Virus record (IMG/VR): IMGVR_UViG_3300005434_000009
Coordinates: 1-64,000 of that record
Length of the DNA: 64,000 nucleotides
Reading direction: 5' to 3' (one strand)
Origin: a virus
Taxonomy: Duplodnaviria > Caudoviricetes
Of this stretch, positions 3,037 through 24,474 are shown one piece after another. Both the position numbers and the translations under genes were made by a program. Below the pieces are notes generated by a model that saw only the letters and a program-made list of their open reading frames with translations, was not told the DNA's origin and ran no database searches. Numbering within the stretch: position 1 is the stretch's first letter; each line of letters begins with the position of its first letter.

Positions 3037-3347
3037 TCGCCGACTCCCGTCTTGACAGGGATGGAGAAGAGGTTCCAGCCGTTGGACATCGCCACGGCGA
3101 GCACCGCATGCCAGGTGAACCGTTCGATGTCATGGGCCGGAGTCGAGGTCGGCGGAAACTTGGGGTCGCACGGGGTGCAGACCTGCATCCGTCGGCCCAG
3201 CCATCCGTCTCTCCACGGGGACCGCCGGAACTCATACCGGACGTTGCCGGTGAGGTCTCGGGCTTCGAGGGGACGGTCTCGGCAGACGTCCTCGTTGGGC
3301 ATCTCGATGCGCCACTCCTGTGACTCGTCCAGGATCTCCACCACCAT
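3033..3347 (-). CDS. Hypothetical protein
   Basis: MVVEILDES...; TGATG overlap. Confidence 0.6.
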   Translation of the reverse strand: MVVEILDESQEWRIEMPNEDVCRDRPLEARDLTGNVRYEFRRSPWRDGWLGRRMQVCTPCDPKFPPTSTPAHDIERFTWHAVLAVAMSNGWNLFSIPVKTGVGE

Positions 3348-3592
3348 CAGGCACTCACCTGCCCGGTCAGCAGGTCGATGTACTTCACGGCGACTCGGCA
3401 CGGGAACGAGCGGCGGAGATGGCGGACCACGGTTCCCCGGTCGTCGACACTGGCCGCCCACCCCAGGGCATCGCAGGTCGGGCAGGTGATCGGGTCCTCG
3501 TCGAGATCCCGGATCGACTGCATCTGCTGACGCCAGTCCGGAGGCAGAGGCCGGCCGTCATCGCCCGTCATGACCAGTTTCGGCTTGGCCAT
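3347..3592 (-). CDS. Hypothetical protein with CxxC
   Basis: MAKPKLVM...; TGATG overlap. Confidence 0.6.
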   Translation of the reverse strand: MAKPKLVMTGDDGRPLPPDWRQQMQSIRDLDEDPITCPTCDALGWAASVDDRGTVVRHLRRSFPCRVAVKYIDLLTGQVSA

Positions 3593-3780
3593 CAGTTCGT
3601 CCCCTCCACCACTCGGGCGGTGAGGGCAGCGACACGGAAGGCGCGGGTGGCACGCTTCGCATCGGCCTTCCGGGAGTAGCTCTGCGACGGCGAGATGATC
3701 TCCCCGTTCGCCGCCACCAGCCGGAACCGCCACCTGCCGGAAGCGTCGGGGAAGATCTCAAAACGGGCGAGCTTGGCCAT
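3592..3780 (-). CDS. YegP/DUF1508 family protein
   Basis: FEIFPDASGRWRFRLVAANGEIISPSQSYSRKADA matches DUF1508 pattern. Confidence 0.85.
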   Translation of the reverse strand: MAKLARFEIFPDASGRWRFRLVAANGEIISPSQSYSRKADAKRATRAFRVAALTARVVEGTN

Positions 3781-4097
3781 CAGGCTGCTTCTCCTCTGAT
3801 CGAACGGGCTATATCGCACTTCTCCACATGCGCCAAAGCCATCAACTCCGCGTCTAACCGGTCCCCCGATTCGCAGAACAGGACGCACTGGCACGGCAGG
3901 ACGATCACCGGGCGACCCAACGGGTGCAGACGTCTGCCTGCCGGGTGCCGGGCCATGTGCGCCAGCAACGACTCCACCTGCTTGGCCCGGATCCGTTTGT
4001 GGCGGCGGATGAGGAACCCCAACACGGCGGCGGCACCGAAGCCGGCGCACACCCAGAAGCCGAGGATGGCCAGGATGAGCAACAGGGTGGGATCCAT
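3780..4097 (-). CDS. Membrane protein
   Basis: N-terminal hydrophobic helix LLLILAILGFWVCAGFGAAAVLGFLI. Confidence 0.6.
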   Translation of the reverse strand: MDPTLLLILAILGFWVCAGFGAAAVLGFLIRRHKRIRAKQVESLLAHMARHPAGRRLHPLGRPVIVLPCQCVLFCESGDRLDAELMALAHVEKCDIARSIRGEAA

Positions 4098-4426
4098 CAG
4101 GGCGTCGCCCCCGCGATCAGGGCGCGCTTCAGATCCTCGTAGCAGCGGACCTTGTTCATCAACTGCGACCTCTCGGTGTGGCATTCGATGACGATCCCGG
4201 TCTCGATGTGGGTGACGCGGACACCCCGGCCGTAGTTCTCGTGCGCGAGCGCACCCGGCGGGTCATAGAACTCGATGCTCAGGTCTTCGGCGTACACCGT
4301 CGGCGCGGCGTTGACCGCCATCACCACCTGCTTGGCGAGCTCGGCGGTGTCCATCAGGCCCACCAGACGGTCACCGATGTACAAGGTCCGGCCGACGCTG
4401 CTACCTACGCGCCAGTGCTCGCTCAT
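4097..4426 (-). CDS. Peptide release factor (RF-1 domain 3)-like protein lacking GGQ
   Basis: EDLSIEFYDPPGALAHENYGRGVRVTHIETGIVIECHTERSQLMNK aligns by eye with RF1 [43 protein letters not shown]. Confidence 0.75.
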   Translation of the reverse strand: MSEHWRVGSSVGRTLYIGDRLVGLMDTAELAKQVVMAVNAAPTVYAEDLSIEFYDPPGALAHENYGRGVRVTHIETGIVIECHTERSQLMNKVRCYEDLKRALIAGATP

Positions 4427-4767
4427 CGCTGCCTCCGGTTCAGCCAGTCGGCCACGAACTCATACCAGTCCTCTTCAAGTCGGCTGATGTCGTCACCGGC
4501 CTCTTCCCACCACGCCCGCTCAGCCGCCCGCACGTCCTCGGCCGTGATGTGGGCCGGGGGCTGGGCGGCGGCTTCGGAGAGGACGGCGCGAGCTACGGCG
4601 ATCCAGTGATGCTGGTTGTCGCGGTCGCCGCGCCACCAGGCTTCGCTCCATGAGTCAGCGCCGTACAGAGTCCGCCTACTGGCCGCCGCTGCTGCCCGAC
4701 CAAGCGCAACTAAGGAGGGGTCGTATTCAATCCCGGTCGCTGGGTCGATCAGAGGGTGCGCGCTCAT
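4423..4767 (-). CDS. Hypothetical protein
   Basis: MSAHPLID...; ATGA overlaps. Confidence 0.6.
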   Translation of the reverse strand: MSAHPLIDPATGIEYDPSLVALGRAAAAASRRTLYGADSWSEAWWRGDRDNQHHWIAVARAVLSEAAAQPPAHITAEDVRAAERAWWEEAGDDISRLEEDWYEFVADWLNRRQR

Positions 4768-22202: not shown

Positions 22203-22312
22203 GGCCACTCCCTGTCCTCCACCCACCCGGTCTCCCACCCTTTGATGAGGGAGGCGAAACCGATGCAGTCGACGGCCAGGACGGCGACACAGACGAGGAC
22301 CACGGCGATCAC
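22196..22312 (-). CDS. Small membrane protein (38 aa)
   Basis: MIAVVLVCVAVLAVDCIGFASL; GTGA overlap with MTase stop. Confidence 0.45.
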   Translation of the reverse strand: MIAVVLVCVAVLAVDCIGFASLIKGWETGWVEDREWPC

Positions 22313-23426
22313 GCGGCCACCGCCTCGGTTGAAACCAGACGGGGCAGGAGAAGCCGTAGGGCGGCCTCCGCCTGTTGCGGGATGACGCCGTTACCCAGAA
22401 GCTTCAGCTGCTGGTTACGGGTCAGTCCGGGGACGTCGCACACCCAGCCTTCGGGGAGGCCCATGAGCCATTCCACGAACGGTGCGGCCAACTGCCGGCC
22501 ACCACGCAGGCCTAGAACAGTCGGGGCGGGTGCGGGCCGTCCGAGGAGGGCTTCCCATCGTCGGATGGCGGGTTCGTATCCGGCCCAGTCCAGAACACGT
22601 CCGTCAACGTCTGGCCGGCGTGGTGGGCACTGTCCGGGTTCGACCGGCCCGAGGTGGCGTTCCTGGTCCCCCGCGAGTCCGCGACCGTCGGCGTCGGCAG
22701 GAGCATCACGGCGTTCGGTAGCTGGTTGTTCCTGCACGGGTCGTCGCTGACCGATCCGTCGGACAGCACCCGGTTCTTCCTCGCCGACGGGCCTTTGTGA
22801 TCCCTGCTCGTCGGGGTGGGAAGCAACGCGATCGCGTCGTCCAGATTCCGTTTGCCTTGGATGAACATCCGCCGGAACGCCGTCTTCGTCGACATCGACC
22901 TGCTCGCTGAGTCTACGTCCCTGGCCTGAGGCGTCGGCAGCAGTGATGAAGATCCGCTCCCGGCGGTGGGGGGCTCCAACGGCGGAAGCTCGTAGGCTTC
23001 CCCAGCACGCGTCATACCCGATTTGGGCCAGGTCGCCGACGGCTCGGGCAAGCTCCCCAGCGCCAGCGATAGCGCTGACGTTCTCCAGGACGACGAGTCG
23101 TGGTCGTAGCGTGCGAATGGCTCCGGCAACTGCCGGCCAGATGGCCCGCTCATCCTCTGCGCCCTTCCTCTTCCCTGCCTGCGACCAGGGCTGGCAGGGC
23201 CAGCCGGCGGTGATGACTTCGACCGGTTCGGCCCGTGCCCAGTCCATGGCGATCAGGTCGTGGTGGTTCGGGATGCCAGGGTGGTTGTGGGCGAGCAGTG
23301 TTGAGGCTCCAGCGTCGATGTCGCACACCCACGCCAACTCGCCACCCAGCACGGCCTGCACGGCCATATCAAGGCCGCCGTTCAATAGCCTGAGCACAGG
23401 GAACCGATTCGGAGCTGCTCAGACAT
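22309..23426 (-). pseudogene. C5 cytosine DNA methyltransferase, disrupted at motif I
   Basis: Motifs IV (AGWPCQ), VI (LENV), VIII (HRRERIF), IX (FVEWLMG), X (LGNGV) intact; ATG 23426 reads MSEQLRIGSLCSGY then a 5-nt insertion creates TGA and shifts GGLDMAV out of frame. Confidence 0.85.
22512..23153 (-). CDS. Alternative-frame ORF nested in the MTase gene (M.EcoHK31I beta-like, LLPTP repeats)
   Basis: 213-aa open frame with SD-like AGGAAGG; SATWPKSGM..GEAY motif; three LLPTPxxxD repeats. Confidence 0.6.
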   Translation of the reverse strand: MSGPSGRQLPEPFARYDHDSSSWRTSALSLALGSLPEPSATWPKSGMTRAGEAYELPPLEPPTAGSGSSSLLPTPQARDVDSASRSMSTKTAFRRMFIQGKRNLDDAIALLPTPTSRDHKGPSARKNRVLSDGSVSDDPCRNNQLPNAVMLLPTPTVADSRGTRNATSGRSNPDSAHHAGQTLTDVFWTGPDTNPPSDDGKPSSDGPHPPRLF

Positions 23427-23997
23427 AGGACATCACCCCCCGTGGTGGCGAGGTGCGCTCGCCGGTCAGCCTGCGACGTGCGGCGTCGTAGGTGCGATGG
23501 CACGGGACGCACATACGCTCGTAATCAGCGACGTTGTCGTATCGCCCGGTCAGATTGGCCCACTCATAGCGGACATCGGGGGCGCCAGTCCCGCACTGCT
23601 CGCAACGGGACGGTTTGCCCCGAGCGGCGGCGACGCGCAAGTGCAGAGCGGTGTAGCTGGCACCTGACCCGCGCCAGCTGCCGTTACGCTCGCCGGTCTG
23701 GTCGCGCGGTACCGCTGGCCTTCGTTCAGCGATGAACCGCTCAACCAGCGCTTGCGCCTTATACCCGGACCCGATCACGGTGTCGATCTCGCGGATGGTT
23801 GCGCCGTCGGCGTACATCTGCCGAACAGCCTCAACAAGATCCGGCGGATAGTCCCGTTTCGGTCGACCAGGCGAGGGGCGTTCGCGTTCCCGCAAGCGCG
23901 CTCGACACACGGGCGAGCAGGAGCGGGCGGTGAGGGACTTTGTCGTCCACCGAGATCCGCAGTAATCGCAGGTCTTCTCCCGCAGCGAGGATGGCAT
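23419..23997 (-). CDS. HNH/His-Me finger homing endonuclease-like protein
   Basis: CxxC..CS..C, HTH-like middle, G.RN.SW.G..SY..LH.RV..RGKP..CEQC..WAN..Y..MC..CH. Confidence 0.75.
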   Translation of the reverse strand: MPSSLREKTCDYCGSRWTTKSLTARSCSPVCRARLRERERPSPGRPKRDYPPDLVEAVRQMYADGATIREIDTVIGSGYKAQALVERFIAERRPAVPRDQTGERNGSWRGSGASYTALHLRVAAARGKPSRCEQCGTGAPDVRYEWANLTGRYDNVADYERMCVPCHRTYDAARRRLTGERTSPPRGVMSYV

Positions 23998-24038
23998 CAG
24001 AGTCCGCCGTAACCGGTGCAGAGACTCCCGATCTTCAC
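23997..24038 (-). pseudogene. Original 5' end of the MTase (13-codon stub MKIGSLCTGYGGL*)
   Basis: GTGA overlap with upstream gene, complete motif I, TGATG overlap into HNH gene. Confidence 0.85.
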
Positions 24039-24289
24039 CGGAAACACGCCCCCGTCATCACTGCCGGCCCGTACACGGGCACATCAGCGGACACGAACGC
24101 CACCTGACCGAGCTCAGTCGGGTCCGGGGGTGCGACGGTGACCCCGAGAGAGCACACGACGGCGAGGAGGATGACGAACCCGGCGAGGGCGAGGCGGGTT
24201 TTCACGCACGGCCAGGCGTCTTCGACGTGGTCGATGACCCGCTGGTGGCGGTGAGGGCGTGGTTTGCGGTGCTTCCCGACGTAGGACAT
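24035..24289 (-). CDS. Membrane protein
   Basis: GKHR basic N-terminus, TM LALAGFVILLAVVCSLGV. Confidence 0.6.
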   Translation of the reverse strand: MSYVGKHRKPRPHRHQRVIDHVEDAWPCVKTRLALAGFVILLAVVCSLGVTVAPPDPTELGQVAFVSADVPVYGPAVMTGACFR

Positions 24290-24474
24290 CAGGCGGCCCT
24301 CCGCTCGGCCTGAACCTCAGCCAGCGCCTGGCCGCGAGCCTGAGACAGGCCGTCAGGCACAGGCCGAGCCGGCCTGCCGCCGACGAGGCATGTGTCGCAC
24401 AGCTCGAGGTTGGCGAACGCCTGACGGCCGCAGCGGTCGCATGGTCCGGGAACGGATAGGCAGCGGAAGATCAT
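24289..24474 (-). CDS. Small Zn-finger protein
   Basis: CDRC..CDTC. Confidence 0.5.
   Translation of the reverse strand: MIFRCLSVPGPCDRCGRQAFANLELCDTCLVGGRPARPVPDGLSQARGQALAEVQAERRAA

Follow-up and report, generated by a model that had tools for sequence, protein, structure and literature searches.

How does a phage methylase gene fare when an HNH endonuclease gene interrupts it at motif I and a 5-nt insertion then puts the rest of it into another reading frame? The question is raised by a window of 64,000 nucleotides (positions 1 to 64,000 of IMGVR_UViG_3300005434_000009, a metagenome-derived virus record in Caudoviricetes). Very few natural cases of translational bypassing are known, and gene 60 of phage T4 was long an isolated curiosity, while short stop-hops are, to our knowledge, known only from synthetic constructs.

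The initial annotation, made from the sequence alone, offered four mechanisms for this arrangement: a dead methylase, an excisable switch, a 5-nt ribosomal bypass and a split enzyme. Of these, the bypass fits the comparative data best. We put roughly even odds (about 0.5) on a reading in which a homing cassette carries an immunity insert that would be bypassed by a short ribosomal hop, so that a functional methylase is made.

Organisation of the locus

All features of the locus lie on the minus strand, and the coordinates given for them in the initial annotation agree throughout with the sequence and the ORF list. An upstream gene of 84 aa, taken from that list (24035-24289), overlaps with its end the GTG start of a short stub (23997-24038). 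The stub runs from GTG at 24038 through 13 codons to TGA at 23999-23997 and comprises the recipient methylase's own first 13 codons through motif-I GGL, its C-terminal end reading CTGYGGL. Its peptide is identical to the N-terminus of an uninterrupted allele, P0110, and similar stubs, ending right after motif-I GG, are found in L018/L019 and L020/L021. This left flank, the upstream gene, is common to HNH-free relatives, with positions 24312-24000 of the window showing 97.1% identity to L033 1182-1494 in the same gene order.

The TGA of the stub overlaps the ATG of the HNH ORF (192 aa, 23997-23419). Inside the last HNH codons lies a Shine-Dalgarno-like G-run (23436-23441), where other cassettes have GGAGG followed by TGA, and in an alignment of 14 cassettes the Shine-Dalgarno sequence with an ATG 8-10 nt further on is kept in all. 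In the window this ATG (23426) opens a replacement leader (23382-23426), in which it is followed by 13 codons, the last of them TAT, and then by TGA (23384-23382). The canonical methylase N-terminus encoded by the leader comprises the beta-1 strand with the initial half of motif I and ends in SLCSGY. Within the motif-I coding sequence there follows the insert of five nucleotides, TGAAC (23380-23384), which can equivalently be written as TTGAA inside a TAC codon, and 3' of it GGLDMAV resumes in the other frame from 23379. The initial annotation is supported in its view of a C5 methyltransferase gene that is broken at motif I by an HNH cassette with a replacement 5' end of its own.

The HNH endonuclease

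The endonuclease gene (23419-23997) was assigned from profile matches, homologue conservation and an AF2 model. Its product matches PHROG 8446 (E 2.7e-8) and PHROG 1271 (E 5.6e-6), both annotated 'HNH endonuclease'; a Pfam search gave no match at 0.01 and a sequence search of the PDB returned nothing. There are 102 homologues. Among 38 homologues H119, N148, H167, C132, C163 and C166 do not vary and C135 reaches a conservation of at least 90%, and the protein of the window carries them all, with C132/C135/C163/C166 as two CxxC zinc pairs. The protein is predicted to consist of an N-terminal zinc ribbon, a three-helix DNA-binding domain and a C-terminal HNH domain. The AF2 model has a pLDDT of 88 and gave nothing in a Foldseek search against the PDB at E<=0.001, and residues 114-179 showed a middling resemblance to the HNH nucleases 4h9d (VIA-align Z 5.4 over 64 aligned residues at an rmsd of 3.3) and 5h0m (VIA-align Z 4.8). 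Identity to the annotated HNH genes of phages Gudmit and Lton is 56-59%.

The methylase body

The catalytic N-domain, from GGLD as the second half of motif I through motif VIII, is encoded in frame A at 22912-23379 (PF00145; E 3.7e-29 for the methylase). The C-domain with motifs IX and X, located by tblastn with Gudmit, L023 and L024, is again in frame A at 22309-22592 and ends at a stop at 22311-22309. The translations show the C5 methyltransferase motifs I, IV (PCQ), VI (ENV), VIII, IX and X, with motif I split by the insert.

The target-recognition domain (TRD) is found in a frame-B (+1) ORF at 22512-23153, which aligns to the in-frame TRD of L024, matches PHROG 1008 'DNA methyltransferase' (E 6e-22), and contains three LLPTP-type repeats and a TLTD motif at about 22946-22617. 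Substitutions relative to L035, an HNH-free relative, were distributed over the codon positions as 14/11/28 in the N-domain and 5/4/15 in the C-domain; in the TRD stretch the figures by frame-A position were 34/15/6, which means that the substitutions sit at frame-B third positions. The initial annotation had predicted an uninterrupted repaired ORF of 366 aa. This 362/366-aa ORF is indeed open, but the sequence for target recognition lies in the +1 frame.

A TRD in the +1 frame also occurs in HNH-free alleles. We considered decay as the origin of the frame changes in the body and rejected it because the same changes are found in the HNH-free L035 and because selection acts on each segment in the frame that it uses. 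The L028 methylase, too, was considered as a degraded gene and this was dismissed: its apparent frameshift is a second, stop-containing 8-nt insert at motif IV, and the rest is intact.

Distribution and mobility of the cassette

The same architecture of HNH gene, Shine-Dalgarno sequence, leader and insert is present in the finished genomes of the Gordonia phages Gudmit and Lton and in the metagenomic L011, L018/19, L020-22, L023, L024, L032 and L052, with about ten metagenomic lineages in all and leaders of 13-16 codons of canonical methylase N-terminus across the cassettes. Gudmit and Lton were the only carriers among 50,697 phage records, against which a megablast of the window region found no match. 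A search of viral and genome collections with the HNH alignment gave pattern matches only and zero true relatives. In IMG/VR, an exact 16-mer scan yielded 14 matches, 13 of them due to chance and only L011 real, and a degenerate pattern of HNH C-terminus plus Shine-Dalgarno sequence yielded 15, all due to chance.

Related phages were compared, as suggested in the initial annotation: the cassette is absent from CheeseTouch, the HNH-free counterpart of Lton, and from Whitney and Getalong. The repaired gene that had been predicted from the window also exists in nature, as the uninterrupted alleles P0110 (371 aa, L033) and P0109 (368 aa, L035). In P0110 the 13 residues of the stub continue without a break into GGLDMAV, and at the site L033, L035 and CheeseTouch all read TAC GGC GGA with no insert. 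Cassette-bearing and cassette-free alleles, at a single site of genes that are homologous apart from it, make up the presence/absence polymorphism expected of a homing element.

A rival explanation is that recombination between direct repeats of 7-9 bp deletes the 629-bp cassette, so that the methylase is switched on in part of the population. We regard such an excisable switch as very improbable, even though the repeats exist and the deletion product would equal the natural alleles P0110 and P0109. The ACGGCGG repeats are present at 24010-24004 and 23381-23375, 629 bp apart, but this 7-mer occurs at chance frequency (35 in the window vs 28.5 expected), and the repeat is merely the duplicated motif-I target segment rather than a designed means of repair or switching. 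Likewise, the 13/14-bp repeat noticed nearby does exist (23422-23435 and 24278-24291), but it does not surpass seven further repeats that these 1.1 kb contain by chance. Most cassettes, e.g., those of Gudmit, Lton, L024 and L032, have no stub and so no repeat, and the HNH-free alleles occur in different genomes with diverged flanks, which fits a homing element that is present in some genomes and absent from others.

Blocks of identity mark the movement of the cassette. L020 and L022 have 684 nt in common with 0 differences, from the end of the stub to 29 nt past the insert, flanked by sequence with 6/207 and 21/770 differences (about 2.8%), and their crossover lies inside the stub. Gudmit and Lton share a block of 83% identity that reaches about 190 nt into methylase bodies with no other relationship, and the donor tract of the window stops about 12 nt beyond the insert. 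Because such blocks are discordant with the surrounding divergence, the comparisons show that the cassette is mobile, and they make it demonstrably recent in several genomes. L026 and L031 keep the insert but lack the HNH gene and have large methylase deletions; methylase function is therefore not always kept.

Leader, insert and predicted hairpin

The TGAAC insert is identical in Gudmit, Lton, L011, L020, L024, L026, L028, L031 and L032. In the 14-cassette alignment its five bases are invariant and the neighbouring synonymous sites vary, an apparent invariance that is biased to the extent that several insert-bearing loci were found by a pattern with a fixed 16-mer. The initial annotation had named an assembly error as the scenario that would undo its reading, and the window does come from a metagenome-derived record. 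Since the finished genomes of two isolates, Gudmit and Lton, and at least eight independent assemblies among the many metagenome contigs have this same insert at this very codon, such an error is very unlikely, and the probability that the five nucleotides are absent from the real genome is negligible.

Inserts of 4 nt and 8 nt occur besides those of 5 nt. In the 8-nt type (GCT TGA AA GCC) the gap is flanked by the synonymous codons GCU/GCC, in the 4-nt type of L023 and L052 (TAT T TAC) by UAU/UAC, the next codon being TTA, and in the second, motif-IV insert of L028 (CCG TGA TG CCA) by CCG/CCA, while in the 5-nt type of the window a UAU take-off codon faces an AAC landing codon that matches at 2/3 positions. 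Synonymous codons thus flank the gap in three of the four insert types, and in three of the four a stop is the very next codon. The A-site codon after take-off is UGA in the 5-nt and 8-nt types and UUA in the 4-nt type; TTA is very rare in this genome, at 1.26 per 1000 codons, and TAT accounts for 7% of Tyr codons.

The leader itself is under purifying selection in its own frame, the 4-nt lineages included. Differences among eight leaders fall on the three codon positions as 46/49/142, and five independent leader pairs show 13 synonymous vs 10 non-synonymous codon changes, with a third-position excess at P=0.016. Between the leaders of the two 4-nt lineages, L023 and L052, there are 5 synonymous vs 2 non-synonymous codon changes. 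In about ten lineages the leader is free of stops and frameshifts and its changes are mostly synonymous. The first 45 codons of the methylase body show selection in the other frame, so leader and body are both under purifying selection, each in its own frame, across a non-triplet gap of 4, 5 or 8 nt. For Gudmit and Lton an alternative N-terminus is annotated in the body frame; we rejected this reading, as the frame is unconserved there and is closed by a stop 11 codons upstream in five of nine lineages, which leaves no conserved alternative N-terminus.

RNAalifold predicts a hairpin in the leader mRNA (23388-23424), with a 5' arm that begins at the G of the ATG and a 3' arm that stops one base before the take-off codon. 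In the alignment 88% of cells are paired, vs 31-53% in slid controls; among shuffled alignments 0/500 matched the pairing and 3/500 the covariation score, and the third bases of codons 2 and 12 show a double change, U-A to C-G. These figures are suggestive of a conserved leader hairpin. TTGAAC was also considered as a promoter element and dropped, as there is no -10 element at the proper distance and the downstream sequence is unconserved.

Proposed mechanism and alternatives

We propose that the HNH gene, the Shine-Dalgarno sequence in its last codons, the 14-codon methylase N-terminus and the TGAAC insert together form a homing cassette in motif I of the methylase gene, with the insert itself in the best-conserved stretch of the sequence coding for this motif. 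The HNH enzyme would cut the uninterrupted motif-I DNA of cassette-free phages; the stub, which would now drive HNH translation through the stop/start overlap, is probably the left homology arm used when the cassette homes into a naive gene; and the insert would render its carrier immune to its own HNH enzyme. A ribosome that initiates at the leader ATG would come to UAU with UGA in the A site, where the peptidyl-tRNA could slip 5 nt forward onto AAC, from which decoding would resume at GGC GGC. The outcome would be a normal SGY-GGLD enzyme at a somewhat reduced yield. The hallmarks of gene 60-type bypassing are a stop or 'hungry' A-site codon, matched take-off and landing codons and a 5' structure, and the T4 gene 60 insert protects against MobA (bioRxiv 10.1101/2022.08.31.505936; PMC5009743).

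Several points count against a hop. The landing codon AAC of the 5-nt type, which is the commonest, can pair with tRNA-Tyr at only two of three positions, and non-programmed stop-hops in synthetic constructs are inefficient (PMC5009743). The leader has 14 residues, too few for a nascent-peptide signal of the gene 60 kind. Given the frequent movement of the cassette, intact methylase bodies may simply be recent acquisitions. Furthermore, a start codon overlaps the stop, TTG in the 5-nt and 8-nt types and ATG in the motif-IV insert of L028, which fits termination and reinitiation too.

In this last case the 14-residue leader would be released at UGA and translation would restart at the overlapping TTG (M-N-GGLD), with the body acting alone or complemented by the leader. 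The overlap of T-TG-A in the 5-nt and 8-nt types and the TGATG of L028, which puts an ATG in the downstream frame, are what this explanation would lead one to expect; gene callers choose these starts, there are homing endonucleases that split genes into fragments which interact, and splitting is tolerated by C5 methyltransferases, as in M.EcoHK31I (PMC2836561) and SssI fragments (PMC3404938). However, GGLD is preceded by no stop and no in-frame start in the 4-nt type of L023 and L052, whose leader is conserved all the same, a TTG-started body would be without both the central beta-1 strand and the cofactor loop's F-x-G, a stable subunit is hardly to be expected of a free 14-mer, and the duplicated codons at the gap would have no role. 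We therefore consider reinitiation quite unlikely, and the split enzyme, also put forward in the initial annotation, weaker than the bypass in view of the 4-nt variant.

A homing cassette could also operate with no recoding at all, its insert protecting the carrier and the methylase being dead, in which case the intact ORFs would reflect recent invasion and the scarcity of stops in GC-rich DNA. The recent arrival of the cassette in several genomes and the largely deleted methylase genes beside the insert in L026 and L031 agree with this, phage methylases are dispensable (PMC11855218), and a stop directly after the break would limit wasteful out-of-frame translation. Yet the leader always travels with the HNH gene and so is not refreshed from functional genes, and it has stayed canonical with mostly synonymous change; the five inserted bases do not drift; and synonymous flanking codons in three of four types, with an immediate stop in three of four, are unexpected for a functionless scar. 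Loss of the methylase in this way is unlikely, and the 'ordinary pseudogene' that the initial annotation had kept in reserve is disfavoured by a leader under selection, an invariant insert and non-random variants.

Significance

On the broader scale we advance, tentatively and at a little under even odds, that actinophage HNH cassettes may carry minimal ribosomal hops of 4, 5 or 8 nt, each with a stop or rare codon at the take-off site, as the first family of this kind in nature. The hops would keep the invaded methylase functional and the cassette self-immune, a strategy that would have arisen independently of that of T4 gene 60; the methylase would in addition need its +1-frame TRD, through a nested gene or two further frame changes. 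If the hop is real, a second, unrelated homing-endonuclease element would have solved the same problem with a gap of 4-8 nt, and an immunity insert combined with a ribosomal hop would be a general strategy of selfish nucleases. It would also offer a minimal, easily mutated model for the rules of take-off and landing in high-GC Gram-positive hosts and would imply that methylase starts are systematically mis-annotated in actinophages, the methylase of Gudmit and Lton being called from the wrong frame. The HNH-positive phages Gudmit and Lton and the HNH-negative CheeseTouch, Whitney and Getalong share one Gordonia terrae strain, which makes the idea directly testable. Should there be no hop, the locus would still show cleanly how a homing cassette can inactivate a gene for epigenetic counter-defence.

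Comparison with known systems

The closest parallel is the T4 MobA/gene 39-gene 60 element, in which an HNH homing endonuclease is associated with a 50-nt translational bypass (bioRxiv 10.1101/2022.08.31.505936; PMC5009743). In both, a free-standing HNH gene in a conserved enzyme gene moves with a short insert in the adjacent coding sequence, an insert that is untranslated in T4 and is proposed to be so here; it blocks self-cleavage in T4 and may do so here. A stop or rare codon follows the take-off site, RNA structure (here predicted) lies 5' of it, and nuclease-less elements retain the insert. There is, however, no sequence relationship, and the host gene is a C5 methylase, invaded at motif I, rather than a topoisomerase. 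The gap spans 4, 5 or 8 nt, compared with 50 nt in T4; at 14 codons from the start a nascent-peptide signal is impossible; and the upstream fragment is a 13-codon relic and not a functional subunit. The present cassette also carries a whole replacement N-terminus, and its hosts are high-GC Actinobacteria. With a 5-nt gap and only 14 preceding residues, it is an analogue of the gene 60 cassette family and not a member of it.

Short hops and stop-hops have been studied with E. coli reporters as laboratory constructs of low efficiency, and according to a review no natural in-frame stop-hop is known (PMC5009743). As in those constructs, the peptidyl-tRNA is proposed to leave a codon before a stop and to re-pair a few bases on with a codon that matches it in full or in part, but the events proposed here would change the frame and sit in a conserved natural element. 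MobE-type insertions split nrdA into two interacting polypeptides (bioRxiv 10.1101/2022.08.31.505936), so that there too a homing endonuclease splits its host gene, with a rescue that needs no splicing, as is proposed here. In that case two sizeable fragments with added tails assemble, whereas the upstream fragment here has only 14 residues, which makes such assembly unlikely.

Two further systems concern C5 methylases themselves. The ShiLan-domain insertion is a hidden out-of-frame HNH element inside actinophage DNA methylase genes (PMC11855218) and resembles the present cassette in its target, its sporadic distribution and its out-of-frame coding inside the methylase ORF. It lies within that ORF and is translated in frame to give an additional domain, with no replacement N-terminus or frame-breaking insert, whereas the HNH gene here is a separate ORF at motif I, and ShiLan-type HNH proteins were not found among the matches to that of the window. 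The alpha gene of M.EcoHK31I contains the beta chain in a second, nested reading frame (PMC2836561), and this enzyme, like the two-ORF methylases (Mazhar510 gp79/gp78), shares with our locus a C5 methyltransferase part encoded in an alternative, overlapping frame. The nested chain of M.EcoHK31I supplies motif IX, whereas here the nested +1 frame holds the TRD and motifs IX-X are back in the main frame.

Results

The metagenomic virus record that contains the window is 72.6 kb long, at 66.6% G+C, and the interrupted methylase locus runs along the minus strand. In the ORF list an 84-aa gene comes first, followed by a methylase stub of 13 codons (24038-23997); the stub's TGA and the ATG of a 192-aa ORF, the HNH gene (23997-23419), overlap. 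A G-run Shine-Dalgarno-like site precedes a second methylase start, the 14-codon leader (23426-23385), which runs into a TGA; five extra bases (the insert, 23384-23380) then separate it from the remainder of the C5 methyltransferase, which starts at GGLD in a different frame (the body, 23379-22309). The coordinates given for this locus in the initial annotation were all borne out by the window sequence and ORF list. At 23419-23441 there is a run of six G, and the in-frame TGA that ends the HNH gene, which in other cassettes lies inside GGAGG-TGA, is lost; the window HNH is therefore five codons longer, giving an 8-nt overlap with the leader start. This one-base difference may be genuine or result from an assembly slip.

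The 192-aa ORF encodes an HNH endonuclease: PHROG HNH families match it in profile comparison, all invariant His, Asn and Cys are retained when it is set against 100-plus homologues, and in its predicted structure a zinc ribbon and a three-helix DNA-binding domain are joined to a C-terminal domain whose best structural alignments, with modest scores, are small HNH nucleases. The nearest annotated HNH genes are those of the Gordonia phages Gudmit and Lton, each directly 5' of a methylase gene, and a methylase lies immediately 3' of the HNH in 10 of the 12 HNH loci examined. The Lton HNH (L002:2471-2914) has no N-terminal zinc ribbon and is 148 aa long, vs 187-192 aa, perhaps a nuclease in decay within a cassette that is still complete. 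More distant family members sit 5' of a YqaJ exonuclease gene in a Streptomyces prophage (L051:2501-2929) and 5' of a 541-aa ORF (L053:2501-3004), so the family has other targets.

The initial annotation allowed that the insert might be an assembly artefact, which is made very unlikely by the same five bases at the Gudmit and Lton junctions together with the same architecture in metagenomic loci. In the raw DNA of both phages, an ATG leader ending ..SLFSGY is followed by TGA, the five bases of the window and GGLD. The annotated methylases start in another frame than the leader, namely the body frame, 5' of the real Shine-Dalgarno and ATG leader (L001:3058-4443, Gudmit gene 58; L002:2914-4044, Lton gene 60); their N-termini (..KPVFGLLNGGLD) are conserved nowhere else and are frame artefacts. 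Contigs with HNH homologues and a junction scan placed the architecture in L011, L018/19, L020-22, L023, L024, L026, L028, L031, L032 and L052. Three insert types were found among these loci, part of the sample having been ascertained by a search pattern with the insert fixed: a 5-nt type, TGAAC, which is the commonest, an 8-nt type reading GCT TGA AA GCC, and a 4-nt type reading TAT T TAC, present in two lineages.

In L028 the methylase has another insert, built on the same plan, within motif IV; it is 8 nt long and contains a stop (CCG TGA TG CCA; L028:8090-8130). It lies just 5' of the catalytic PCQ in a methylase that is otherwise intact and also has the motif-I insert. The HNH upstream is absent there, an HNH_3 gene is found upstream of the methylase, and an Endonuclease-VII-family gene lies directly 3', overlapping the methylase 3' end (L028:8679-9179 and L028:6099-6728 are listed with the locus). 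In L026 the gene 5' of the leader (4272-4733) is not the HNH gene; it ends in a comparable ..RR-x-x-TG-x-RT-x-P.. tail, and its SD-TGA is identical. Possibly the nuclease was exchanged within the cassette, as is seen for MobA elements. Additional HNH genes occur just 3' of the methylase in L024 and L052, and in the Gordonia phages Keitabear and Sedona (H71, H75, H76; ~3256-4155 of the records) a homologous methylase gene is interrupted by an annotated LAGLIDADG (or HNH) endonuclease gene. Methylase genes of actinophages appear to be hot spots of homing-element insertion.

The methylases closest to that of the window are uninterrupted: P0110, whose N-terminus equals the 13 residues of the stub and whose contig (L033) has the gene order of the window, and P0109 (L035), a second such allele. 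Identity between the window and L033 is 97% through the end of the stub, drops to 82% over the initial 450 nt of body sequence and is 91-95% beyond. The 12 nt after the insert hold three synonymous differences, followed by identity to L033 and L035, and the right-hand crossover is placed there. Over 684 nt, L020 and L022 are identical: the shared tract begins at the stub end, takes in HNH, leader and insert and includes 29 nt of the body. The surroundings differ at 6/207 and 21/770 positions, three of these inside the stub. The block that Gudmit and Lton share, at 83%, stops ~190 nt into their methylase bodies, which are unrelated. The cassette, as these alignments indicate, is mobile. In L018/19 and L020/21 the stubs 5' of the HNH differ in sequence and all end just after the motif-I GG; the stub is thus the N-terminus of the recipient gene itself, and it very probably serves as left homology arm. 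L023 has, 5' of the HNH, a short ORF (200-266) that resembles an internally deleted stub: it opens with V-S-E-L-G-M-G, and its end, at GGCGG plus 4 nt, precedes the ATG. Gudmit and Lton are the only carriers of the cassette in 50,697 phage records; in ~290 other methylase genes homology begins two bases before the insert end, and the HNH-free phage CheeseTouch reads TAC GGC GGA with no interruption.

As the leader sits between HNH and insert, it must travel with the cassette. Across cassettes with no more than 43-66% identity between their HNH proteins, it still encodes a canonical N-terminus and contains neither a stop nor a frameshift. In a comparison of eight leaders, codon positions 1, 2 and 3 account for 46, 49 and 142 differences, and five independent pairs gave 13 synonymous vs 10 non-synonymous codon changes (third-position excess P=0.016). 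The first 45 body codons are also constrained, in another frame than the leader, and no body-frame extension 5' of the insert is conserved among the lineages compared. In the cassette alignment neighbouring synonymous sites vary, but no variation occurs in the five bases of the insert or in TAT, a rare codon that makes up 7% of Tyr codons.

The 362-aa methylase ORF is open, but its middle third resembles a wrong-frame translation. The +1 frame there holds three LLPTP-type repeats and a TLTD motif, which align both to a PHROG methylase family and to the recognition domain that L024 encodes in frame. This target-recognition domain (22512-23153, minus strand) directly follows motif VIII, motifs IX-X being back in the main frame. 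Substitutions vs the HNH-free L035, by main-frame codon position, are 14/11/28 in the N-domain, 34/15/6 in the middle third and 5/4/15 in the C-domain, so the +1 frame is selected in the middle third and is not cassette damage. The same switch follows motif VIII in most relatives, and the +1-frame domain is also seen in L035, L033, L001, L002, L020, L023, L032, L018 and L011. Some relatives, e.g., Mazhar510, are annotated as two overlapping methylase genes; the 'AD..G.G' stretches of annotated single-ORF relatives are LLPTP read in the other frame. The domain is either a nested TRD gene, for which M.EcoHK31I is a precedent as a nested alternative-frame chain (PMC2836561), or the product of two more frame changes.

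Discussion

Gene 60-type bypassing is characterised by slow decoding in the A site, take-off and landing codons that match, structure on the 5' side and an insert that protects against self-cleavage (bioRxiv 10.1101/2022.08.31.505936; PMC5009743). In the loci described here UGA follows the take-off codon, with UUA, the least used Leu codon of this genome, in its place in the 4-nt type; synonymous codons flank the gap on both sides in the 8-nt and 4-nt types; and a leader hairpin, with modest covariation support, has its 3' arm ending at the take-off codon. Together with the constraint on leader and body, these features favour a 5-nt hop, in which the ribosome would pass from UAU onto AAC and yield a ..SGY-GGLD.. 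methylase. This reading has its weaknesses: AAC would pair with tRNA-Tyr at two positions only, two HNH-less insert carriers have deleted methylases, and cassette transfer is so frequent that intact methylase bodies prove little. Termination and reinitiation at the insert is possible because a TTG, or an ATG in L028, overlaps the stop, but in the 4-nt type both the stop and a restart codon are missing.

A literature search found no paper describing such a cassette-plus-insert element, and according to the ShiLan-domain paper (PMC11855218) a strong association of HNH genes with methylases was not yet known. The element is no member of the gene 60 cassette family: it lacks homology to that family, a 50-nt gap and a nascent-peptide signal. 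The mechanism proposed for it would nonetheless follow the gene 60 logic.
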